Below are positions 51,495 to 64,000 of a stretch of DNA of 64,000 bases, piece after piece. Origin of the DNA: Syntrophales bacterium (GTDB lineage: Bacteria > Desulfobacterota > Syntrophia > Syntrophales > UBA2210); the NCBI GenBank assembly GCA_963666365.2, contig CAXXNF010000002.1, forward strand, positions 1,952,001 to 2,016,000, given 5' to 3'. Numbering within the stretch: the first letter of the stretch is position 1; every line of letters starts with the position of its first letter. The notes below the pieces were generated by a model that saw nothing but the letters and a program-made list of their open reading frames with translations, did no database searches and was not told the DNA's origin. Made by a program: the position numbers and the translations under genes.

Positions 51495-54482
51495 TCAGAA
51501 ATGGAATGCATCCCTGAAGATGAGGTATGCCAGCACTAACCCAAAAAGCGTAGCGGCGATTCCCATAATGCCGGCAAGCAGGCGAGTCCTCACGCTGGGC
51601 GCCCTGCGTATCAGCGTTTCCAGGCGATTTTCCGCAATGATCCGCTCGTACTCTTCCGGTCGTTCCTCCTTGAGCGCTGCCACACTATACCGTCCGGTAA
51701 AAATATTCGATTCCATGGGGAATTTGTTCGGCACCAGATGATTATGAAAGTAGTGGACCGTGAAAATGAAGACGGCCGCCAGGAACGCTTCCTCTGAGTG
51801 GGCAACCGTGGCCACGTTGATCATCCACCCTGGCAGGATGTAGGAGAACAACTCCGGGAACCAGAGGATAAGACCCGACATACCGATCACGAACATTCCC
51901 CAGAAAACGGCGAAGAAGTCGAACTTCTCCCAGTAGGTCCAGCGCTCGAAGCGAGGCATCTCCCCCCTGTTGAAGAACCATCGGAACATCCCCTTGAGAT
52001 CAAGCCAGTCCTTCAGGTTAAAGAAAAGTGATTCCGGCCCGAAGAGACGTCCCAGCCATCCGCGGACCCTTCCGTTCGGGAAGAGGAACTTCACGCTTCT
52101 CCAGCATGTGTATATAAAGAGCACCCACAACACAGTGGCGGCTGCGCGGTGCCAGAATCCGGCCATCTCAACCCCGCCCAGCATATTGATGAAGAATTTC
52201 GCCGTTACCGTTTCATGGTATTTAAGCGGGAAGCCAGTAATGACAAGCATAAAAAATGAGATCATCAGGAGAAAATGCATGATGCGATCTCGCCAGGAAA
52301 AACGCTGCACATAGGTAGTCATATCCCCTGAACAGGGCTCTTCCCATTCCATCAAGTGCACACCTCTGCCCGTCCATTTCTTCCAATAGGCCTTCCTCCA
52401 CCAGAGGATAGTATGCACCCAGAAAAAGGCAAACACAAAAATAAGAAGTCCGATCATGAATATATTGGTCCAGAACAATGCAGGATTGTGTTCGGGATCG
52501 CTGTAATCCGGATGAGCTTCATACTTGACGAACCGTGCATGAAATCCACTGTGGCATTGTGCGCAGTCCTTCATAAGATCGCTTTCGTGCACAGTTGATC
52601 GAGGATCCGATGAAGGCAGGATATTGTGGCCGTTATGGCAATCGGCACACCCGGCTACCCGCTCGGCAGTTCCCACGTCAAAAACCTTGCCATGAAATGT
52701 TTCGTGATACAAATCGGCCGCCGAAATTGACATGTTGTTGCGCTTTACCAGTTCCTCATCGCCGTGACAGCTGATGCACGCGACTGTGTATGCCTCCTTT
52801 TCCTGCGCGCGGCCTTCCTTGGTTCCCCTGTCATAAAACGGCGTGTCATGAAGCCCGTGACAATCGGCACAGGAAGCCGCATCCTCATTCCCCTTGAGAA
52901 CGGCGTTACCGTGTCCGTTGCGCACATAGCGGTCCTTTTCGTGACAAGCGGTACAGCGGTTGATTACCGCAGTCTTTGTTCCCCCGTCTTCCTTTTTCCG
53001 AACGTGCGCATCGCTATGACAATCAAGACAGGTTTTCCCCGCCTTGAGGGCGTGCATGTCGTTTTCATATTGCAAGGCGATATCCTTATGGCAGCTCGCA
53101 CAGGCGGTAAGACCCGGCTTCTTCTCCTTTTTCATGTGAGCCGCCACGTCATCTATCCCGGTGTGGCAGGTTGTGCAGGCAAGGATGCCGTGGACCGACT
53201 GTGCGAACCTATCGACGTATTGCGCATCGTTGTGACAGGTAGCGCATTGTATGAGGGCTTCCGCGGTTTTCTTTTCCGCCGGTACCGTCTCCCCGCCCTT
53301 CATCTCTTTTGCCATCGCCGGCTTTGCCGCCGCCTCCGTCTTTGCCGGCTTTACCATCGGCGACGGGATGACGAAATCGAACTCGTGGCACTGGTGACAA
53401 AAGTTCTCCGACGGCTTGTGGGCGTGATGGCAGAGATCGCAGTCCAGCTCGGGGCCGTAATGGGAGTTATGCGGATTGGCCTCTTTGACGTCCTTTGTCG
53501 CCTCAACGAGATCTTCGGGCTTATGACAGGTAAGGCAGTGACTCGTGCCCACGAACTTCGGGGGATCGGTCTCGCCGTGACACCCGGCGCAGGAGACCCC
53601 GCCTAAGAGGTGGCTGTGGCTCAGGGGGAGCACGCTGGTCAGCTTCGGATCGTCTTCCTTATGGCAGGCCATGCACTGGGCGAGATCCATCCCCTTCGTG
53701 TCGGGGTGCGTCCCGGGAATCATGGCCTCCTTGTGACAGGCGGCACAGTCTCCACCCCTCGCTGCTGCTGAGGGCGCCGTCTCGGGAGCGGGTGCGATTG
53801 CGGCAATCGTCTTTTCCTCAGAGGCCTTTTCCTGACCGACCGTTACAGCCGCCGGCGCAGTCTTCTTCGATTCTTCACCCTTCGAGGGCTCTTTCGCCGC
53901 AGGCGCCTCTTTCTTCGCGGGCGCTACCATCGGCGACGGGATGACGAAATCGAACTCGTGGCACTGGTGACAAAAGTTCTCCGACGGCTTGTGGGCGTGA
54001 TGGCAGAGATCGCAGTCCAGCTCGGGGCCGTAATGGGAGTTATGCGGATTGGCCTCTTTGACGTCCTTTGTCGCCTCAACGAGATCTTCGGGCTTATGAC
54101 AGGTAAGGCAGTGACTCGTGCCCACGAACTTCGGGGGATCGGTCTCGCCGTGACACCCGGCGCAGGAGACCCCGCCTAAGAGGTGGCTGTGGCTCAGGGG
54201 GAGCACGCTGGTCAGCTTCGGATCGTCTTCCTTATGGCAGGCCATGCACTGGCCGAGATCCATTCCCTTCGTGTCGGGATGCGCCTCGGGCACCATGGTA
54301 TTCCCCTCATGGCACAGTGCACATTCCCCGCCTTTTGCAGTCGGCACTGCTTCGGGTTCCGCCGAGAGTGCAGTCTTTGAATCGGCGCTGCAGAAAATGA
54401 AAAAAAGACACGCAACGAGGAAAGGGATGATGCTTCTGCGGCTCCGGATTGGAAACTCACGCATATGTGGGTTTGGCTTCAT
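51495..54482 (-). CDS. 21-heme c-type cytochrome fused to a cytochrome b domain (two 6-heme flavocytochrome-type modules + CbcL-like 9-heme/cyt b unit)
   Basis: Signal peptide; 21 CxxCH counted (6+6+9); Ala/Pro/Lys-rich linkers; TM domain with RIMH, FWHR, YWEKFDFFAVFWG, VAHSEEA and VHYFH. AGGGGG RBS before the ATG at 54482. Confidence 0.9.
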   Translation of the reverse strand: MKPNPHMREFPIRSRRSIIPFLVACLFFIFCSADSKTALSAEPEAVPTAKGGECALCHEGNTMVPEAHPDTKGMDLGQCMACHKEDDPKLTSVLPLSHSHLLGGVSCAGCHGETDPPKFVGTSHCLTCHKPEDLVEATKDVKEANPHNSHYGPELDCDLCHHAHKPSENFCHQCHEFDFVIPSPMVAPAKKEAPAAKEPSKGEESKKTAPAAVTVGQEKASEEKTIAAIAPAPETAPSAAARGGDCAACHKEAMIPGTHPDTKGMDLAQCMACHKEDDPKLTSVLPLSHSHLLGGVSCAGCHGETDPPKFVGTSHCLTCHKPEDLVEATKDVKEANPHNSHYGPELDCDLCHHAHKPSENFCHQCHEFDFVIPSPMVKPAKTEAAAKPAMAKEMKGGETVPAEKKTAEALIQCATCHNDAQYVDRFAQSVHGILACTTCHTGIDDVAAHMKKEKKPGLTACASCHKDIALQYENDMHALKAGKTCLDCHSDAHVRKKEDGGTKTAVINRCTACHEKDRYVRNGHGNAVLKGNEDAASCADCHGLHDTPFYDRGTKEGRAQEKEAYTVACISCHGDEELVKRNNMSISAADLYHETFHGKVFDVGTAERVAGCADCHNGHNILPSSDPRSTVHESDLMKDCAQCHSGFHARFVKYEAHPDYSDPEHNPALFWTNIFMIGLLIFVFAFFWVHTILWWRKAYWKKWTGRGVHLMEWEEPCSGDMTTYVQRFSWRDRIMHFLLMISFFMLVITGFPLKYHETVTAKFFINMLGGVEMAGFWHRAAATVLWVLFIYTCWRSVKFLFPNGRVRGWLGRLFGPESLFFNLKDWLDLKGMFRWFFNRGEMPRFERWTYWEKFDFFAVFWGMFVIGMSGLILWFPELFSYILPGWMINVATVAHSEEAFLAAVFIFTVHYFHNHLVPNKFPMESNIFTGRYSVAALKEERPEEYERIIAENRLETLIRRAPSVRTRLLAGIMGIAATLFGLVLAYLIFRDAFHF
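53352..54252. repeat. Intragenic direct repeat: 328 bp identical at 53352-53679 and 53925-54252 (period 573 bp)
   Basis: Compared by eye base by base; the identity breaks at 53680/54253 and the flanks diverge. Confidence 0.9.
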
Positions 54483-54626
54483 ACTTCCCCCTGATCGGAT
54501 TCGGCAGTGCAACTCGCGATACTACCCATATTAAAAACCTACCGGCTGCCGCCGCGTGGTGGCATATGTCCCTCTCCACCCCGCGACGGCTTCGGTTAAC
54601 CACACAATCAGTTGCTCTTCCCGCCG

Positions 54627-56159
54627 TTATACTTTCGCGGCGGCACTCTGGCCGGCAATGCGTCCGAAGACGATGCAATCGAGCACGGCGCAGCTTCCCA
54701 GACGCACGGCGCCGTGGACACCGCCGGTAATCTCACCGGCCGCGTAAAGTCCCGGGATGGGTTTACGATCAAGCCCGATAACCTGCGCCTTCGTATTTAT
54801 CTGAATGCCGCCCATGGTATGATGCACCTTGGGCCAGGCGCGACATCCATAGAACGGAGGCGTTACCATCGGTTTCTGGTCGGTCTGCAGATATCGGCCG
54901 AATTCCTCATCCTTGCCCTGTTTCACATACTTGTTCCACTTGTTTATCGTTTCCTTGACTGTGTCCACCGGAATCTTATATTCGGCGGCCAAGGCCTCGA
55001 TGGTGTCGAACTTCTTCGCCACGCCCTTTGCCAGGATCTTGTCGAGGATGGGAACCCGTTTGACCCCTTCACTGTCTGCAATGGTAATGGCCGGATGTCC
55101 CGTCCTGATAATGGCATCGGCACGGATCTTTCGGTCTGCCAATTCATTGATGAAGCGCTTCCCCGTTTGCGGATCCACCATGACACCATAGACAAAACCG
55201 GCTATGGCGTTGAAGACATAGCCGATGCCCATGCCTTTCTCGTCGGGACTGGTCCAGGGACCGAGCTGTATCCAGGAAATCTGCACGGGCGTCGCGCCTG
55301 ACCTGAGCGCATCCATGAGCACCTCTCCCGTTGCCCCGGGCTGATTGGTGGAATCCACATCGGCCGTCAGCTTCGGATCCTGGATCGTTCTGAAATAGAG
55401 ATCCCTGCCGAAACCGCCAGAGGCGAGCACGAGCCCCTTGTTGGCCTTCAGATATTTTACCGTGCCGGTGCTCTCATCGGGGAAGCGGTAGCCTTCTCTG
55501 ATCTTCAGGCCGGCAACCTTCCCGTCCTTATCCTGGATGATGGACATGACATAGGCCTGCATCCTCACCTCGACACCAAGGCCCTTTACCTTCTCCAGCT
55601 CCTTCATTACGATGGCCGATCCGCTGCTGTTGTAGGTCGAATAGCTGCGGGGGACCGAATGGCCGCCCAGATGGGTTACCCGGTCCTTGTACTTGACGCC
55701 CAGCATCTCCGTCCATTCCGCTGCTTCCCGCGACTTTTCCGCAATCATCCTGGCCAGATCCACATGATTGAGGTAGAGCCCGGCCTTCAACATATCCTTC
55801 AGCAGCAGTTCCGGCGAATCCTTGATCCCTTCCGCCTCCTGCTTCGGTGATCCCGCCACGGCAAAGACGCCGCCGTTGATGATGGAGTTCCCTCCGGGAA
55901 CACGCATTTTCTCAAGAACCACGGTCGAAGCGCCCGCCTGCTTCGCCTCGATGGCCGCAGCCAGACCGGCGAACCCGCTGCCGACCACCACCACATCGAA
56001 CTCCTCGTCCCATTTGGCGGGCATGTCGGCGCCATAGGCCTTAAGAGGACCGGCAAGCAGGGAACCGGCTGCCACACCGGCCAGCGCGGCGCCACCTGTG
56101 GTCTTCATGAACCCTCTTCGCGTCAAACCCTCAGCTACATTGTTTTTTTCATCTTTCAT
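54627..56159 (-). CDS. Tat-exported flavocytochrome c flavoprotein subunit 1 (no heme domain)
   Basis: TRRGFMK, VGSGFAGLAA, GGNSIINGG, GGHSVPR, KVHHTMGG and HGAVRLG. Confidence 0.92.
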   Translation of the reverse strand: MKDEKNNVAEGLTRRGFMKTTGGAALAGVAAGSLLAGPLKAYGADMPAKWDEEFDVVVVGSGFAGLAAAIEAKQAGASTVVLEKMRVPGGNSIINGGVFAVAGSPKQEAEGIKDSPELLLKDMLKAGLYLNHVDLARMIAEKSREAAEWTEMLGVKYKDRVTHLGGHSVPRSYSTYNSSGSAIVMKELEKVKGLGVEVRMQAYVMSIIQDKDGKVAGLKIREGYRFPDESTGTVKYLKANKGLVLASGGFGRDLYFRTIQDPKLTADVDSTNQPGATGEVLMDALRSGATPVQISWIQLGPWTSPDEKGMGIGYVFNAIAGFVYGVMVDPQTGKRFINELADRKIRADAIIRTGHPAITIADSEGVKRVPILDKILAKGVAKKFDTIEALAAEYKIPVDTVKETINKWNKYVKQGKDEEFGRYLQTDQKPMVTPPFYGCRAWPKVHHTMGGIQINTKAQVIGLDRKPIPGLYAAGEITGGVHGAVRLGSCAVLDCIVFGRIAGQSAAAKV

Positions 56160-56192
56160 ACCCAATCTCCTTTGTTTCTATAGTGAACACTT

Positions 56193-56456: not shown

Positions 56457-58007
56457 TTACAGGGCAGCCGCATTCTTGCCCGCAATACGTCCGAAGACCA
56501 GACAATCCACCACGGCACAACTGCCGAGGCGCACCGCTCCGTGAACGCCGCCGGCCACTTCGCCGGCCGCATAAAGCCCCTTGATCGGAGCACCGTCCAC
56601 ATCGATCACCTCTGCCTTGTCATTGATCTGCACACCGCCCATGGTATGGTGCACCTTCGGCCAGAGTCTGACGGCATAAAAGGGAGAAGTCGCAATCGGT
56701 TTGGCGTCGGGCTGGAGGAATCGTCCGAATTCCTTGTCCATTCCCGTCTTCAGATATGAGTTGTAGTCGTCGACGGTCTTTTTGACAGCCGCAAAGGGTA
56801 TTTCATAGGCCGCGGCCAGTGCCTCGAGGGTATCAAATTTTTTGACGACGCCACGCTCCAGGAGTTTTTTCACTGCACCGGGAGGACCTCCGCACTTTTT
56901 CGATCCCTCTTCGTCGGAGATACCGATCGCCGCATGACCGGTTCTGATGATGGCGTCGGCCCGAATTTTGCGATTTGCAAGCTCACTGATGAAGCGCTTT
57001 CCCGTTGCGGGATCCACCATGACACCGTAGCTGAAAACCGGACCCGTTGCGAAATGGGGCGCCAGCCCGAAGCCCTTTTCGTCAGGACTTGCCCAGGGAC
57101 CGAGCTGAATCCAGGAGGGCTGCACGGGATTCGCGCCAAGCCTGAAAAGCTCCTTGAGCCCTTCGGCGGTGGCGCCCGGCTGATTCGTGGAATTGACCTT
57201 GGCTATGAGCTTTGGATCCTGCGTCATTCTGTAGTGCACGTCCTGAGAAAATCCGCCCGTTGCCATCACAAGACCCTTCTTTGTGCGGATCGTCTTGACA
57301 GCGCCGCTCTTTTCATCGGGAAAGCGATACCCTTCCCGTATCTGGATACCGGCAATACGCCCATCCTTGTCTCTGAATATTCTTTCCAGATAGGCCTGCG
57401 TAACGATGGGCACACCCAGCTCCTTTAGTTTGGCCGCTTCCTTCATGACAATGCCCGAACCGCTGTAGTTCGAAGTGGGGCAGCTTCTAGCCACGGCATG
57501 ACCCCCCATATGGAGAAGCTGCGCCGCTTTTCCGAATTTGACGTCAAGATGCTCCTTGCACCAATTGTATGCGTCCCTGGATTGATAGGCCACCATTTTT
57601 GCCAGCTCGGGGTAGTTCAAGTACAGTCCGGCCTTCATCATGTCTTCCAGCATCAGCTCCGGAGAATCCTTAATCCCTCTCTCATCCTGCATATCGGATC
57701 CGGCCACGGCCATGACGCCACCGTTAATAATTGAATTGCCTCCATTCACGCGCATTTTCTCATAGACCGCAACCGACGCGCCCGCCTCCTTGGCCTCGAT
57801 TGCCGCGGCAAGCCCTGCAAAACCGCTGCCGATGACGGCCACATCGATTTCCTCGTCCCATTTCTGGGGCATCTCGGCGCTGAACGCCTTTGACGGACCG
57901 GCCAGCAATCCACCGGCGGCAACGCCGCCAAGGGCGACAGTGCCCGTTGTTTTGAGGAACCCTCTACGGGTCAAACCCTCATTTTTTGGTAATGTATCTT
58001 TCGCCAT
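56457..58007 (-). CDS. Tat-exported flavocytochrome c flavoprotein subunit 2 (no heme domain)
   Basis: TRRGFLK and the same FAD and active-site motifs as its paralog at 54627-56159. Confidence 0.92.
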   Translation of the reverse strand: MAKDTLPKNEGLTRRGFLKTTGTVALGGVAAGGLLAGPSKAFSAEMPQKWDEEIDVAVIGSGFAGLAAAIEAKEAGASVAVYEKMRVNGGNSIINGGVMAVAGSDMQDERGIKDSPELMLEDMMKAGLYLNYPELAKMVAYQSRDAYNWCKEHLDVKFGKAAQLLHMGGHAVARSCPTSNYSGSGIVMKEAAKLKELGVPIVTQAYLERIFRDKDGRIAGIQIREGYRFPDEKSGAVKTIRTKKGLVMATGGFSQDVHYRMTQDPKLIAKVNSTNQPGATAEGLKELFRLGANPVQPSWIQLGPWASPDEKGFGLAPHFATGPVFSYGVMVDPATGKRFISELANRKIRADAIIRTGHAAIGISDEEGSKKCGGPPGAVKKLLERGVVKKFDTLEALAAAYEIPFAAVKKTVDDYNSYLKTGMDKEFGRFLQPDAKPIATSPFYAVRLWPKVHHTMGGVQINDKAEVIDVDGAPIKGLYAAGEVAGGVHGAVRLGSCAVVDCLVFGRIAGKNAAAL

Positions 58008-58139
58008 ATTAAACCTCCTTGTTAAGGTAATAATGAAATGTAATCGGCGCCACTAAACCCTGAGGACTTCGTCGCGCACTATTGAAGCACCCCGAGAGCA
58101 TAATTCGGGATTCTTTTACCTTTGTGAGAGAACTTTTCC

Positions 58140-58157
58140 TTATGAAAGCATTCACAA
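58140..58157. promoter_or_regulatory. Candidate Rex operator
   Basis: TTATGAA-AGCA-TTCACAA; one mismatch to TTGTGAA-N4-TTCACAA. Confidence 0.55.
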
Positions 58158-58245
58158 ACTTTCATTTTTCTCAGACTACTTTTGGTGCAATTTGTAAGAA
58201 CTCTGAATCGAAAATATCAGAGCGCATAGTAGAGGACAGACCGGA

Positions 58246-58380
58246 AATGAATTACCCCGCCGCAAGCTACGGGGGAATTAGCCCACAGGAAATAAATCAC
58301 ATTGGGGTTTTTACTCCTCGCCCCTTGGGACATTCAATGCTTTTAAAGATACCCCGCTGCTTGCGGCGGGGCAATTCATT
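58246..58380. mobile_element. 135-bp non-autonomous element with hairpin-containing inverted ends (MITE / IS200-IS605-end-like)
   Basis: Left end AATGAATTACCCCGCCGCAAGCTACGGGG; reverse complement of the right end AATGAATTGCCCCGCCGCAAGCAGCGGGG (26/29 match). Confidence 0.65.
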
Positions 58381-58520
58381 ATCAAAACGGTTTATTATGA
58401 TAAAAACTATCTTTCAAGTCAAGCATTTTCCTTTGACTTTTAGTCTGCTGTGTGTTGCTTCGATTACATTATGAGGGAAATTGTGGGAAATAACACCAGT
58501 GAAACGCTCAGGCTTTACCT

Positions 58521-59144
58521 TTAATGCCCTTCCTTATTGTCGTACCCAGTAATCATGGCGCTGAAATTTGCAACAACTGTGTGGCCGGTGGTGGCAAGGT
58601 AGATGTGCGCTATAAAAAACAAGCAGAAAATAGCTGCCATAATATAGTGGAACACCGCCACGGTCGCTAATCCACCGACAGACGCCACCAGGGGCTCGAA
58701 AAAGGAGGGATAGAGGTATATGATACCGCTGATCAACAGGAGCGGCATCATGATGAACATAAACATAAAATACGTTGCTTTCTGCAACGGATTAAACTTG
58801 TTGTCTTCCGACGGATTATAGGGATGGGGCCTGTTTTTGAAAATATCATACAGATAAAATCGCGCCTGCACGATCATGCCCGGATGAATATCTTCTTTTC
58901 TCATCACATAATGCGAAATCCTCTTTGAAATCAAATTATAAGCCAACCAGAAAACAAAATCGGCAACGAGCACCCATCCCAACCAGTTATGCAGTGAAAG
59001 CGCATTTGAAAAGCTTCCAAAAATATTAACGCTGTCCGGCCAGTGCATCTGGATACCTGTTAAAATAAGCAATAATATTAAAAGTGCATGAATCCAATGC
59101 CATATGCGCTCGGCGATCGGATGCAGATATATTTTCTCTGACAT
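58521..59144 (-). CDS. Di-heme cytochrome b (hydrogenase/thiosulfate reductase cytochrome b type)
   Basis: ERIWHW, LHNW, KFNPLQK, VFHY and AHIYLATTG. Confidence 0.9.
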   Translation of the reverse strand: MSEKIYLHPIAERIWHWIHALLILLLILTGIQMHWPDSVNIFGSFSNALSLHNWLGWVLVADFVFWLAYNLISKRISHYVMRKEDIHPGMIVQARFYLYDIFKNRPHPYNPSEDNKFNPLQKATYFMFMFIMMPLLLISGIIYLYPSFFEPLVASVGGLATVAVFHYIMAAIFCLFFIAHIYLATTGHTVVANFSAMITGYDNKEGH

Positions 59145-59148
59145 GTTC

Positions 59149-60912
59149 TTATTTTCTCCTCTTGCCGGTAAATCTCAATGCTCCGTGCACTGCACATCCC
59201 ACAAGCGTAAGAAGCGCCAGCAAAATTACAACGACGTCGAGAGCCGGAATTCTATTGCTGCCCACCACATAATTCCCTTTTTCAATAAGCCCGGCGTTGG
59301 TAAATTTCCAATTGGCCAGCGAATAATCCGGTTTTCCTTCAGCCTCTTTCAAGAGAATCGTGTTGTATGTATGACAAAGCTGACAATCGTCAACGGGAGC
59401 TGCCATTGAAGGATCGTGACATACGAGACAATCGGTTTTTTTCAGGTGAAGCTTCGGCTGTTCCAGCCAGTTATGCCGCACGGATGGAGCGGGCTTTAAC
59501 GTAACGAACACATCTTTGTTTGCATCGATTTCCCACGATTCGGCAGCATCCTTTTCCGTCAGAAACAGTTCATCCTTTCCGTGACAGGAAAGGCACGTTT
59601 CGTTTTGTGGGGTCTTCAGTTGAATGCTATGCGGCGTTGCATATTTCCATGTTTGCACTTTGCCCACTTCAGTCAGGGCGTCCTTCACGTAAAAATCAAA
59701 GAGATCCGGACTTACGGGAATATGTCGAACCGTCACATATTGCTCAGGCCGGTCTTCGCTCATTTTCGGATTCATTCCGATTTTGAAGCCCACCTTTGAC
59801 GGCTTTGTTTTAAAATAGGGAGCACCTGATGCGTCTTTACCCACATGACAACTATAACAGTGTTTATAAGGCATCGCGTGACATACTTGACAACTCACCT
59901 TGTCTTTGTGAATCATATGGCTCGGATGTACACGCTCTTTCGCTTCACTTTCGTCTTGCGCCGCTTCATCTTCAGAACCTGCCAATTTATGACACTTTTC
60001 GCACCTTGACCCGTCTGCAACGTCATATCTGTCAAAGGTCTCATGGCTCATGCCGTTTCCGTGCATTTCATCACCGGAATGGCAATCCATACATGACATA
60101 CATTTATCAATACGGTGCACATCACCCTGCACACCCTTATTCTGGCCGTAGAATTCCTTGCCTACCCTGCTTCCGTGACAGGAGGTGCAATTTGTTTCAA
60201 CAGGAGGAGTTTTCTGAAAAATGTGGCCTTCTACGAATCCGCCTTCGACGGAATTGGGACGGCTTACGTGACATTGACCGCAACTGCTGTGACACTTCAT
60301 ACAGTGCGTTTCCATGGCGCAGTCTATTTTTTCACGTACCGATGGATCCGCATTTGCCCTTAGATAAATTTTGTTTTTAAACGGGGCAAGCGTTACATGC
60401 AGATTTGTTTTGTTTTTTTCTGCAATTTCCGGATGTCCCTCTTCATCGTCTACGAAGTGGCACTCGCCGCACTTCTGCACAGGATCGGGATAGGAAGGAT
60501 CTCTCATCAGACCTTCATGTGCCGTCTCATAATCATCGCTTTCAGGATCGCCACCATGGCACTGTTCACAGGATATCTGCCCATGGACATCATCGTCGAT
60601 GAAATCAGAGTCAACCAGCACTTTTTCGTATGGCTCCAACTGAGCCACAGCTCCGCCTCACCCTTCGCCTTCCGATTCAGCGGACTTTTTCTGCTGAGGA
60701 TTTTTCGCTGCAATCTCTTTTGTAATTCTTACCAGCTCTTTCACACTTGTATGGCATGAGACGCAGCCGCTTTCCTCGGCACTAACCATCTGCCCCGCAC
60801 CAAGAAAAACAACAACAAAGATGGCAGCAACAATAACAAAAAGTTCTGACGTGTACCGCGCACACATTATTTTGTGTGCAGAAACCCCTCTGTAAACAAT
60901 GCGTTCTTTCAT
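59149..60912 (-). CDS. 13-heme c-type cytochrome with an in-frame UGA (60658-60660); probable selenoprotein
   Basis: The 84-aa ORF (signal peptide, 1 CxxCH) and the 499-aa ORF (12 CxxCH, C-terminal TM, no signal peptide) are in-frame through SEGEG-U-GGAVAQLEPYEK. Confidence 0.82.
60629..60649 (-). promoter_or_regulatory. SECIS-like hairpin after the cytochrome UGA
   Basis: mRNA UGUGGCUC-AGUUG-GAGCCAUA; the loop starts 16 nt 3' of the UGA and has G-U at loop positions 2-3. Confidence 0.72.
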
Positions 60913-61167
60913 AACGCCCTAACACATATCAAAAACCGCTGTACGGGTAAAGGTTTTTTTACTCACAGTTACTTGAAAAAGACAGACCTCCCAAATTTCG
61001 GCTTCCAATCCTGGAATCTAGTGCCTGCCCATCGAAGGTTCCTGCATGAAAGCAAGGCCTATGCATAACTCCTGTATTTTGTACCCGCTGTGATTTTACT
61101 TTTTTTAAAAAACATGTTATGGATTGCAGGTAGTGAAAGAAATCTTATTTTTGGAGGTAAAGCTATT

Positions 61168-61614
61168 ATGCGTAATCAGATGGTTTTTAGGAAAGGTCTT
61201 ATCATTTCCATTGCCGTGATTTTAGTGCTCTCATTGTCCGGATATTGTCTGGCGGACAAGACCAGCAAGGATTTTGTAAATGAAGCGAAAAAAACGGTGA
61301 AAGAAATCTCCGTCGCCGATGCAAAGGCAGAAATAGATTCGGGAAAAGTGGCAATAATTCTCGACTGCAGAACGGAGAAGGAGTTTAAAAAAGGACATAT
61401 TCCTAAAGCAATGAATATTCCTCGCGGTCTTCTGGAATTCAAAATTGAAAAGAAAATACCGAAGAAAGACGCCTACATAATTTGTTACTGCGTATCAGGC
61501 GGCCGTTCCTGTCTTGCCTGCAGCACCATGAAAGAGATGGGATATTCAAACTTGAAAAGCATGGCGGGCGGATGGAAGGCATGGGTCAAAGCCGGTTATC
61601 CGATAGAGGAATAA
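61168..61614 (+). CDS. Exported single-domain rhodanese (sulfurtransferase)
   Basis: GGAGG RBS, signal peptide ending GYCLA, LDCRT..EF..GHIP and active-site loop YCVSGGRS. Confidence 0.9.
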   Translation: MRNQMVFRKGLIISIAVILVLSLSGYCLADKTSKDFVNEAKKTVKEISVADAKAEIDSGKVAIILDCRTEKEFKKGHIPKAMNIPRGLLEFKIEKKIPKKDAYIICYCVSGGRSCLACSTMKEMGYSNLKSMAGGWKAWVKAGYPIEE

Positions 61615-61640
61615 CGCTAAAATCAAACGGATAAAACTGG

Positions 61641-61677
61641 AGGGGAACAATTCTGAAAGGGGTTGTTCCCTTTTTTT
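61641..61677 (+). terminator. Rho-independent terminator
   Basis: GGGAACAA...TTGTTCCC stem followed by T7. Confidence 0.7.
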
Positions 61678-61703
61678 ATAATCGCACAGTATGCACTGTT
61701 CCG

Positions 61704-62546
61704 TTACATGTAACTGTGCAAACCCGAAAGTATGTAATTTACCCCGAGATAAGTAAAAATCACGGCAAAAAAACCGAGAATGGCAATACAGGCCATGATG
61801 GTTCCCTTCCATCCCTTTACCAGGCGGGCGTGGAGATAGGCGCCGTAAATCATCCAGGTGATGAGCGACCAGGTCTCTTTCGGATCCCACCCCCAATACC
61901 TTCCCCAGGCAGTATCGGCCCAGGCTGCACCAGTAATTATTCCCAGACTCAGTAAAACAAAACCGATTGAGGTTATTCGATAGGCCAGATCGTCCCACAT
62001 CGCGGCATCCGCGAGAAGTGCCGTAATTCTCGGTCCTCCCTTCACTCTGATCAAATAGAGTATGCTGGTGATGAACGAAAGAGCAAAACAGGCATAGGCA
62101 AGAAAGGAACTCACCACGTGACTGATGAGCCAATTACTTCTTAATGCGGGTATAAGAGGCTGAATTTCCGTGCTCACACTGCCGGAAAGCGACGCATAGG
62201 CCGGCAGCAAAAAGGCCAGGAAGGATGCCAGTATTCCGATACTTTCATTACCGTAACGTCTCCACATTATCAGCAATACGAGCATTACTGACCAGGAAAA
62301 AAAGACGAGCGATTCGTAGAGATTGGAAAGAGGTGCATGCCCGATTTCCAGTTGATACGAAATTGCCCAGCGCAGAATAATCGCAAACGTTTCTATGGAA
62401 AATCCGCTTGCCACCAGGATCAGTGCCAATACACGGATGACCTTTTTTTTAAAAACAAAGGCAGTAAAGAAGAAAAGAGTTCCAAAAAAATAAAGAAATG
62501 TTGCAATACTTACAAAAAATGTATCGTTCATACCAGTATCAATCAT
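61704..62546 (-). CDS. resC: System II cytochrome c biogenesis protein (ResC/CcsA type, WWD domain)
   Basis: HAPLSNLYES, WADTAWGRYWGWDPKETW and SGLHSY. Confidence 0.93.
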   Translation of the reverse strand: MIDTGMNDTFFVSIATFLYFFGTLFFFTAFVFKKKVIRVLALILVASGFSIETFAIILRWAISYQLEIGHAPLSNLYESLVFFSWSVMLVLLIMWRRYGNESIGILASFLAFLLPAYASLSGSVSTEIQPLIPALRSNWLISHVVSSFLAYACFALSFITSILYLIRVKGGPRITALLADAAMWDDLAYRITSIGFVLLSLGIITGAAWADTAWGRYWGWDPKETWSLITWMIYGAYLHARLVKGWKGTIMACIAILGFFAVIFTYLGVNYILSGLHSYM

Positions 62547-63868
62547 TGTTGTAGTTTATTAAGATGCTTTGCAAGAATTTTCTCGAAGTTGCCGTCGCGT
62601 TTTCTGTCTGTTTTCGCTGCAACTTCAACATATGATCCTTCGCCGGACGGCGTAATCCGTATCGACAGACACCGGTGCGACCCAAAGAGCACAATTACAA
62701 AACCGATGAGAATCAGGGCAAACCCACTCCATACCACGGGCATTCCCGGATTTTTGCTTATCTGTATGCCCGTGTAGTAGCGAGCGGTAAAATCTTCCAG
62801 TGCAAAGATATACTCTCCCCGTTCTACTTCCTGAGACCGGTGCCTCTGAAATGGTATCCAGAAAATATCGTGACTCATCCCCGGCACAAGCATCACACCC
62901 AATACTGCCGCCCCCTGTCCTTGAAAATCCGGCACAAACCGTGCAACGGCAAAGGAAGAGTCGCTTCCCGGCAATGGCACTTTTCGCATCCGATGGAGTG
63001 TAAGCACCGATCTGGTGCCGCTTTTCTTTTCCGTAACGGCGACTTTGAAATCGGAAGCATCGGCCATTCCATATGAAGCCTGACATAGTTTGTATCCCCG
63101 AAAGACAATGGGATGATTTACTCGTATCGATTCCTCCGCCACAGACGCACCCTCATCAATGATCGTTACATCGGATCGGTATTCTTTCGGCATACCACTG
63201 TCGTAAAATTCAACGGAAAAACGATTGCATCGTACCGAAAAGGGCAGCGTCATTTCTTTGGTTCCCGGAGAAACAAGAACCTTGCTCGAGGTTTCTCCCT
63301 CGACAATCGTCATTTGGCCTTCAAAACCGCCGACTGCACCTATGAGACCGCCGGCCAGAATTATCAGAATGCTCACATGAACGAACAGGATACCAAGCCG
63401 CGCATAGGCACCTTTTTCCGCATAAAGGTATCGCACGTCACGCTCACCTTTCACATTCGGCTTCCCGACAAGCGCTTTTACCAACATTCGCAGATTGCCT
63501 TCTATGCGTTCCCCTCTATCGTGCATTTCGAACTTATGTTGTATCGGCCACCCGCAAAAGGCCGCATCGCTCTTATCACCCCGCTTCCGAAACAGCGGGG
63601 CGCAAATTCCCGGAAGCGTTTTCGCCGTACAGGCAATGAGGTTAACTGCCAAAAGCGCCAGGAGAACGGTGAACCACCAGGAATGGTACATGTCTGAAAT
63701 ATCGAAAAACTCAATAAGAGAAACCGTACCCGGTCCATAGACATTCTCATAGTGGTCCTTTGGGAGCCCCTGTGCTACCAAAGTGCCGAACACGGAGGTT
63801 GCGGCCAGCGCAAAAAAAAGGAATATGGTAAGTTTTGCCGAAGCAAGTCCCTTGATAACTTTTTTCAT
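62543..63868 (-). CDS. resB: System II cytochrome c biogenesis protein (ResB type)
   Basis: SVFGTLVAQ, MYHSWWF, VHVSIL, IRVNHP and YTGIQISKNPG. Confidence 0.92.
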   Translation of the reverse strand: MKKVIKGLASAKLTIFLFFALAATSVFGTLVAQGLPKDHYENVYGPGTVSLIEFFDISDMYHSWWFTVLLALLAVNLIACTAKTLPGICAPLFRKRGDKSDAAFCGWPIQHKFEMHDRGERIEGNLRMLVKALVGKPNVKGERDVRYLYAEKGAYARLGILFVHVSILIILAGGLIGAVGGFEGQMTIVEGETSSKVLVSPGTKEMTLPFSVRCNRFSVEFYDSGMPKEYRSDVTIIDEGASVAEESIRVNHPIVFRGYKLCQASYGMADASDFKVAVTEKKSGTRSVLTLHRMRKVPLPGSDSSFAVARFVPDFQGQGAAVLGVMLVPGMSHDIFWIPFQRHRSQEVERGEYIFALEDFTARYYTGIQISKNPGMPVVWSGFALILIGFVIVLFGSHRCLSIRITPSGEGSYVEVAAKTDRKRDGNFEKILAKHLNKLQQ

Positions 63869-63907
63869 TATACACCGTTGTTGATCATAATCGGACAGGT
63901 GGATTCT

Positions 63908-64000
63908 TTACCCCTCCCAGAGCGTCCGGCTTCGAGGGATTTCAGATTCCCTGGTACTTGCAGAATCCTTATAGGCCCGGAATAGCAAATAGCTGCCGAG
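63908..64000 (-). CDS. Possible 3' end of an upstream gene entering from the window edge
   Basis: Open frame LGSYLLFRAYKDSASTRESEIPRSRTLWEG* ends 39 nt before resB; too short to assign. Confidence 0.3.
   Translation of the reverse strand, partial: LGSYLLFRAYKDSASTRESEIPRSRTLWEG

Follow-up and report, generated by a model that had tools for sequence, protein, structure and literature searches.

Organization of the locus

A 64,000 nt stretch of a Syntrophales bacterium genome (contig CAXXNF010000002.1; hereafter the window, whose numbering is used for all positions except where another locus or genome is named) carries three genes that form a periplasm-facing redox module at its core, one for a selenocysteine (Sec)-containing multihaem cytochrome c, one for a cytochrome b and one for an exported rhodanese. 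The gene for the Sec-cytochrome (59149–60912, minus strand) codes for a 587-residue cytochrome c with 13 haems, an assignment based on the read-through translation, the number of CxxCH motifs, conservation in the family, an AlphaFold2 (AF2) model and a fold match to PDB entry 1SP3. The cytochrome b gene (58521–59144, minus strand) starts 4 nt past the Sec-cytochrome stop codon and encodes a PhsC-like four-helix protein of the PF01292 type (E 1.3e-27), the presumed menaquinol oxidase and membrane partner of the Sec-cytochrome. The rhodanese gene (61168–61614, plus strand) is transcribed divergently from the cytochrome gene across a 255 nt intergenic gap (60913–61167), and its 148-residue, single-domain product (PF00581, E 1.3e-22, 80.6 bits) has a signal peptide and an intact CVSGGR loop, with the codon for the catalytic Cys108 at 61489–61491 (plus strand). 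Two system II cytochrome c biogenesis genes adjoin the rhodanese gene and are convergent with it; the order on the minus strand is resB, ccsB, the long Sec-cytochrome frame and the cytochrome b gene, with the plus-strand rhodanese gene between ccsB and the long frame. The original prediction for this locus, made from the sequence alone, drew attention to the 4 nt spacing, to a His in the terminal transmembrane segment of the Sec-cytochrome (VHGALR, here His576 within CAVHGALRF) and to a divergent signal-peptide rhodanese with an intact loop, and all of these are present at the positions given above.

The in-frame TGA is a selenocysteine codon

The Sec-cytochrome gene is a single 587-codon frame whose only interruption under translation table 11 is a TGA at 60658–60660 (minus strand), the codon for residue 85. 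This TGA is a selenocysteine codon, because its conservation, the covariation of the adjoining selenocysteine insertion sequence (SECIS), the existence of Cys homologues and the presence of Sec machinery all agree. Relatives are encoded at 411 loci in a scan that took a single genome for each prokaryotic species, and the best 80 of these were used here. In-frame TGA codons are present within a GEG-U-GG motif in 77 of these 80, with the protein conserved on both sides (...GEG-U-GG-x-V-x-P-L-x-P-[HY]-E-K); one of the remaining three loci is masked at the site and two are unmatched by the motif search patterns. Sampling of 121 genomes from the window's own order (that of the host, G000, included) identifies a match at E ≤ 1e-30 in 56, and 54 of the 58 match rows contain the in-frame TGA. 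Two relatives in this order (G073:C234:46747-48366 and G033:C139:21185-22408) align across the Sec position with no internal stop, the one in G073 being a long form at 59% identity; these may be Cys forms or other substitutions inside the Sec clade.

A SECIS-like hairpin is located at 60630–60648 (minus strand), identified from the fold of the window sequence and covariation in the relatives and considered against the general spacing criteria for SECIS hairpins. In the window sequence alone it begins 9 nt past the UGA and has a 7-bp stem with an AGUUG loop (z -2.07); most relatives have an 8-bp stem and a GUU loop at +13..+31. We aligned 71 of the 77 TGA-containing sequences (66 distinct rows), omitting six with a 3 nt insertion (L050, L063, L069, L071, L081 and L084), and found standard pairs in 96.8% of the cells of the 8-bp stem, compared to 86.2% in shuffles and 26–51% in slid-partner controls. 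Two stem pairs are altered on both sides (43 cells), which was reached by none of 500 shuffles. The stem includes a compensatory codon swap, GCU...GAG in one clade (V-A-P-L-E-P) and GAG...GCU in the other (V-E-P-L-A-P), a clear case of RNA structure constraining protein sequence.

The host genome encodes a tRNA-SeC (ARAGORN) and SelB (361.5 bits; cut-off 242.25). Among 29 distant full-length homologues (26–41% identity), ten have Cys exactly at the Sec column and three more have it one or two columns away; the residues at this column in others include Trp, Tyr, His and Leu. When 30 sequences were examined for columns that covary with the presence of Sec or Cys, just the two following glycines did so and no partner residue emerged. 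The database proteins with Trp at the Sec position include P0021 and P0063 and, among the distant homologues, P0134, P0135, P0146 and P0248. Where close relatives have GEG-W-GG, a gene caller that applied a different genetic code has probably read a TGA as Trp, and in distant homologues the Trp may be genuine.

Public gene calls split the genes of this family at the TGA into two hypothetical proteins, and the annotation of the window accordingly treats the TGA as a true stop, giving an 84-residue monohaem peptide followed by a signal-less 499-residue cytochrome. The two pieces do exist as separate database entries (P0208, 84 aa; P0002, 499 aa), and the region is matched by no Rfam family, a scan of 58000–64000 at E ≤ 10 giving seven chance-level matches and none to a SECIS family. 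However, attachment of c-type haem requires export and the downstream piece has no signal peptide, and the protein is conserved across the TGA in the 77 loci described above; together with the hairpin covariation, the Cys homologues and the Sec machinery of the genome, these features make termination at this codon exceedingly improbable.

The Sec-cytochrome has an octahaem tetrathionate reductase fold

The Sec-cytochrome is one selenoprotein with 13 haems that is anchored through its C-terminal helix. It contains 13 CxxCH motifs and an N-terminal signal/anchor, which is followed by haem 1, the Sec85 loop (EGEG-U-GG) and a core resembling octahaem tetrathionate reductase (OTR). The family core consists of haems 1–11 and extends to about residue 480, beyond which the window protein has two extra haems and the C-terminal transmembrane helix (residues ~556–586). 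In 73 full-length family sequences Sec85 is invariant (100%), and there is no conserved Cys outside the CxxCH motifs except at the Sec85 site.

An AF2 model of residues 1–481 derived from a 93-sequence alignment has a mean predicted local distance difference test score (pLDDT) of 89.3 and a predicted template modelling score (pTM) of 0.84, with values of 91–97 in the region of the Sec loop; with only 40 rows in the alignment the model reached a pLDDT of 59.5, and this poor model was set aside in favour of the 93-row one. An exhaustive structural search (VIA-align) reveals one clear match, to the OTR of Shewanella oneidensis (1SP3; Z 8.8), with the next best at Z 3.9. The 1SP3 match spans 252 of 436 residues (model residues 107–479) with a root-mean-square deviation of 4.3 Å and 20% identity, and the family profile aligns colinearly with 1SP3 (E 3.2e-11). 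As modelled, the family core has the OTR fold. Foldseek detected no PDB entry similar to the AF2 model at E ≤ 0.001, a phmmer search of the single Sec-cytochrome against PDB sequences returned nothing meaningful, and TIGR04315, the OTR family model, does not match the Sec-cytochrome at E ≤ 0.01.

Sequence correspondence suggests that haem 3 (C148) is equivalent to OTR haem 1 and that the tandem motif C204xxCH-SS-C211xxCH is equivalent to OTR haems 2 and 3, haem 4 (C204) being the presumed counterpart of OTR haem 2. On this reading the first two haems, together with the Sec loop, would constitute an N-terminal addition to the OTR core. OTR haem 2 is the active site, with Lys56 (a numbering that is consistent with the 1SP3 chain) as the ligand of the active-site haem; Lys56 falls in an insertion that is absent from the family profile, although this stretch is weakly aligned and the placement is of low confidence. 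Both proteins are periplasmic and multihaem with a shared haem-core fold, and OTR reduces a sulfur compound. The family differs from OTR in having three more core haems (11/13 haems in total compared to eight), an N-terminal arm bearing a haem and Sec, and a near-obligate rhodanese neighbour (described below), to which the window adds a transmembrane anchor and a cytochrome b.

These comparisons raise the question of whether the protein functions strictly as an OTR, acting as an oxidoreductase on tetrathionate (or thiosulfate/tetrathionate), with Sec replacing the Cys/Lys environment of the active site and the rhodanese scavenging or buffering sulfane by-products. That 1SP3 is the sole clear fold match and aligns colinearly with the profile is consistent with such an activity, but the absence of a TIGR04315 match, the larger haem number and the loss of the Lys56 segment (at the low confidence noted) argue against it, as does the rhodanese, since to our knowledge a near-obligate rhodanese partner is not a feature of OTRs. 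Sec-containing members of TIGR04315 are listed in a 2026 review of prokaryotic selenoproteins (PMC13188914), which also favours such an activity, and on balance we regard a strict OTR function as unlikely.

Two architectures and a near-obligate rhodanese partner

The Sec-cytochrome has 2456 relatives at E ≤ 1e-5, most of which begin just past the TGA, and in a representative protein library its matches comprise 529 clusters at E ≤ 0.001, of which 134 reach E ≤ 1e-30. There are two architectures. The short form, in 66 of the 80 loci, is a soluble protein of ~445 aa with 11 haems, and is carried by two cultured Desulfosarcina strains, D. alkanivorans PL12 and D. widdelii PP31. The rarer long form, in 14 of the 80 loci and in the window, has the two additional haems and the C-terminal membrane helix; its hosts are of the Syntrophales type or are unclassified Deltaproteobacteria/Thermodesulfobacteriota, the exception being L014, which is titled Pseudomonadota. 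We found no description of the family in the literature or selenoprotein catalogues searched, which were mostly open-access; in the passages searched, the 2026 review names three cytochrome-type selenoprotein families only, ExtKL, the GSU2204-type and TIGR04315 (PMC13188914). The family, whose members are selenium-haem enzymes of the OTR fold that have a rhodanese as partner, is new, and apparently undescribed.

Members of the family are almost always encoded beside one orthologous exported rhodanese with its catalytic Cys intact. By phmmer, 70 of the 80 loci encode an orthologue of the window rhodanese (E 1e-34 to 1e-69), and all 67 that could be aligned (67/67) retain the signal peptide and the catalytic C-x-x-G-G-R loop. 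In the short-form loci the rhodanese gene is directly downstream of the cytochrome gene on the same strand in 61 of 66, with a gap of -3 to 236 nt (59 loci measured plus L045), and in three of the five short-form loci that lack it the available sequence ends within 260 bases of the cytochrome gene. In the long-form loci the rhodanese is nearby in 9 of 14 and its position is variable. In two relatives, P0160 (715 aa) and P0136 (652 aa), the cytochrome core is fused with two tandem rhodanese domains, and such fusions are probably the source of the name 'thiosulfate/3-mercaptopyruvate sulfurtransferase' given by the Joint Genome Institute (JGI) to several family members. The linkage across genomes that the original prediction had named as its own check is thus evident both in the 70 loci and in the fusions.

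Cytochrome b and quinol coupling

The best named match of the cytochrome b is PhsC (NF011582), with a near full-length alignment and a score of 162.5 bits, below the cut-off of 204; there is no match among PDB sequences at E ≤ 0.01. An orthologue is encoded immediately downstream of the Sec-cytochrome in 13 of the 14 long-form loci, and the sequence of the fourteenth ends inside the gene. Fusions occur elsewhere in the family, with a cytochrome b domain in P0032 and with a NapC/NirT quinol dehydrogenase module in P0164, and the short form presumably takes its electrons from the pool of periplasmic cytochromes. The pairing of an anchor helix with a cytochrome b of four helices would parallel the beta/gamma arrangement seen in complexes of the formate dehydrogenase-N type. 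A Pfam scan of the locus proteins revealed no molybdopterin or iron-sulfur (FeS) subunit in the cluster, and the molybdenum-independent, quinol-linked architecture envisaged from the sequence holds on both counts, with a PhsC-like cytochrome b present and a molybdopterin subunit absent.

Cytochrome maturation and other neighbouring genes

The ccsB gene (61704–62546, minus strand; TIGR03144, 249.5 bits, cut-off 187.6) and the resB gene (62543–63868, minus strand; PF05140, E 5.1e-89) lie where the original prediction had placed a resB-resC pair, and their position is as described, as ccsB-resB, although the dedicated maturation role implied for them is not upheld. This is the single ResB locus of a genome that is 94% complete and in which no CcmE was found; a second CcsB-like gene (G000:C2:1599696-1600382) scores 175.8 bits, below the cut-off of 187.6, and is away from any ResB. 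Because this pair is the genome's sole system II machinery, it serves housekeeping cytochrome c maturation and is not dedicated to the module. A dedicated haem lyase of the NrfI or CcsA1 type was considered and ruled out by the same observations, the only ResB in the genome and no CcmE. The pair is adjacent to the Sec-cytochrome in 6 of the 14 long-form loci, which may be plain synteny.

To the other side of the cytochrome b gene are three minus-strand genes with a different character. The first (51495–54512) encodes a 1005-residue fusion of a multihaem cytochrome c with a cytochrome b domain, and has a near-identical internal tandem duplication of ~190 residues; duplicate small open reading frames are present at 53351–53506 and 53924–54079. 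The others (54627–56165 and 56457–58007) encode FAD subunits of the flavocytochrome-c type (TIGR01813; 451 and 487 bits), whose N-termini by eye resemble twin-arginine translocation (Tat) signals. The G+C content of this region is about 57–60%, compared to 45% in the Sec-cytochrome cluster, and the 80 loci contain no homologue of any of the three genes at E < 1e-4. They are outside the Sec-cytochrome module, and look like a separate quinol-linked periplasmic reductase module.

A regulator with PAS, sigma-54 activator and HTH_8 domains is encoded beside 40 of the 80 loci, usually divergently from the short-form operon and upstream of the cytochrome gene (for example L042:5720-7195 and L022:1157-2503). 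None is present beside the window cluster, and the best homologue in the genome (C2:1650465-1651769, 58% identity) is ~360 kb away. We considered a sigma-54 promoter as a shared signal and rejected it as too weak to use, with the consensus occurring at ≤2 mismatches upstream of just 11 of 71 family genes; in the window it is absent at that threshold from the 300 nt upstream of the cytochrome start, a stretch that covers the whole intergenic gap to the rhodanese. Terminator-like hairpins are located 3' of the rhodanese gene (61639–61674, strong) and 3' of the cytochrome b gene (58255–58274, weaker).

Genes resembling those for formate dehydrogenase (FDH) are found within 8 kb of the Sec-cytochrome in 10–17 of the 80 loci (for example L027:2320-6509, L062:5897-7593 and L044:12620-14944). 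The set includes a molybdopterin subunit, a 4Fe-4S subunit and FdhE, and the molybdopterin reading frame begins in mid-domain, as if cut at another Sec codon. In 14 loci a small NifX-like protein (PF02579) is encoded directly upstream of the Sec-cytochrome.

Relationship to known sulfur reductases

The closest functional precedent for the family is MccSep (ExtKL, GSU2937-2936) of Geobacter sulfurreducens (PDB 9WT8), a Sec-containing pentahaem cytochrome that was proven in 2026 to be a polysulfide reductase, with an active site composed of Sec325 and the Cys239-ligated haem 2 (PMC13510729), and whose gene cluster also encodes the rhodanese-like ExtH (PMC13510729, PMC5877670). Both are periplasmic, molybdenum-independent multihaem cytochromes c found mainly in the Desulfobacterota, have one Sec inserted at an in-frame UGA with a SECIS, are encoded by genes that public annotation splits at the UGA, and have a rhodanese in the neighbourhood. 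However, the Sec-cytochromes have 11 or 13 haems rather than five, the Sec is in an N-terminal Gly-rich loop (G-U-G-G) rather than a C-terminal immunoglobulin-like domain, there is neither a conserved haem-ligating Cys nor a D-G-U-P Sec loop, and the window form is membrane-anchored and has its own cytochrome b. The MccSep model NF040886 matches neither the Sec-cytochrome at E ≤ 0.01 nor anything in the genome, and the family profile aligns with 9WT8 over just 27 residues (E 0.0049, 18.7 bits). MccSep is not a relative, being unrelated in both sequence and fold, and of the analogy with ExtKL drawn earlier for this locus the functional likeness stands and homology does not.

The proposed organization also follows the logic of the PsrABC/PhsABC systems together with Sud of Wolinella, in which quinol is oxidised by a membrane subunit, catalysis takes place in a periplasmic one and sulfur is carried by a periplasmic protein of the rhodanese type, but the catalytic subunit here would be a Sec-haem protein and the cluster encodes no molybdopterin or FeS subunit.

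The likeness to MccSep raises a further alternative, that the substrate is selenite, tellurite or another metalloid, which the cell would detoxify or respire, and that the rhodanese handles selenium. Selenite is also reduced by MccSep, and the ext cluster with ExtH is implicated in selenite and tellurite reduction (PMC13510729, PMC5877670); the PAS–sigma-54 activator beside half of the loci suggests inducible expression. Selenite, however, is the poorer substrate for MccSep (PMC13510729), and a distribution over 411 species genomes and 56 of 121 genomes of the window's order is easier to reconcile with a plentiful substrate, such as sulfur, than with metalloids present in traces. We consider a metalloid reductase to be distinctly unlikely.

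Proposed function

We propose that the net reaction of the module is that of a molybdenum-independent quinol:sulfane-sulfur (polysulfide/thiosulfate) reductase, a reading drawn from sequence and structural comparison to which we assign a probability of about one in two. In the long form menaquinol would be oxidised by the PhsC-like cytochrome b, and electrons would pass through the 13-haem wire to an OTR-type active-site haem near Sec85. The rhodanese would take up sulfane sulfur (from polysulfide, polysulfide derived from elemental sulfur, or thiosulfate) as a cysteine persulfide and present it to the cytochrome, where the Sec85 selenolate would attack the S–S bond to form an Se–S intermediate that the haems would reduce to sulfide. 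As no second Cys is conserved in the family, the Cys of the rhodanese may supply in trans the role that Cys239 has in MccSep. A search of the host genome found neither DsrA nor MccSep, so the module would represent a separate route for sulfur compounds.

Several observations weigh against this proposal. Neither Sec nor Cys is present at the Sec column or within two columns of it in 16 of the 29 distant full-length homologues, and the rhodanese fusion P0160 has Tyr at the Sec position, so cooperation with rhodanese does not appear to require Sec or Cys strictly. The rhodanese is absent from two long-form loci (L010 and L016) and two short-form loci (L040 and L052) in spite of there being room for it. 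The original prediction cited Wolinella Sud as a known precedent, and a specific likeness of the rhodanese to Sud is not supported: the match to Sud (1QXN; E 8.1e-7, 32 bits) is weak and no closer than to generic rhodaneses, with that to 6MXV far above it (E 5.4e-46). The OTR fold does not fix a sulfur substrate, since OTR also reduces nitrite and hydroxylamine, and the FDH-like neighbours hint at other electron-transfer roles. Finally, the 73 full-length sequences have 11 conserved non-motif His residues for 11 core haems, so that all of the core haems could be bis-His ligated with no open site.

This last feature would suit a protein that simply conducts electrons through its haems, Sec serving only to tune or ligate one of them, or a system that oxidises sulfide, thiosulfate or sulfane sulfur and feeds the quinone pool in the manner of TsdA or SoxAX. 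The homologues with residues other than Sec or Cys and the FDH genes near 10–17 loci are compatible with these roles, and His/Cys-ligated haems are known to act in thiosulfate oxidation (PMC13510729). However, strict conservation of a costly Sec across the Desulfobacterota argues for catalysis, and the hosts, judging from their lineage names, are strictly anaerobic organisms, syntrophs and sulfate reducers, for which a high-potential acceptor is not obvious. Strict Sec conservation, taken with the absence of any other conserved non-haem Cys and the OTR fold, favours catalysis over plain wiring, and we think it improbable that the Sec-cytochrome is either a simple conduit or an oxidase of this kind.

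A more specific form of the sulfane-sulfur reductase proposal, which we advance tentatively and with some doubt, is that the family represents a separate evolutionary origin of selenium-haem sulfur reductases, the second such class, with the OTR fold as its scaffold. In this form the catalytic chalcogen pair would be split between two proteins, with Sec85 carried on a mobile N-terminal arm and the rhodanese persulfide as the true substrate. If so, the pair would be a molybdenum-independent thiosulfate/polysulfide reductase, as the rhodanese would load from either thiosulfate or polysulfide.

Implications

Selenium-dependent multihaem sulfur reduction was first demonstrated in 2026 with MccSep (PMC13510729). 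The family described here, with its rhodanese, has a larger haem count and is at least as widespread, occurring in 411 species genomes in one pattern scan. As annotation is split at the UGA, it is invisible in metabolic reconstructions of sulfate reducers, syntrophs and the partner bacteria of methane seeps. The near-obligate rhodanese, along with quinol modules that replace one another (a cytochrome b, either separate or fused, or a fused NapC/NirT), offers a concrete, testable system for molybdenum-independent respiration of sulfur compounds. The family is present in hundreds of Desulfobacterota species, and should the chalcogen pair indeed be divided between the cytochrome and the rhodanese, much of the cryptic cycling of sulfur in anoxic sediments could follow this so far unrecognised route.

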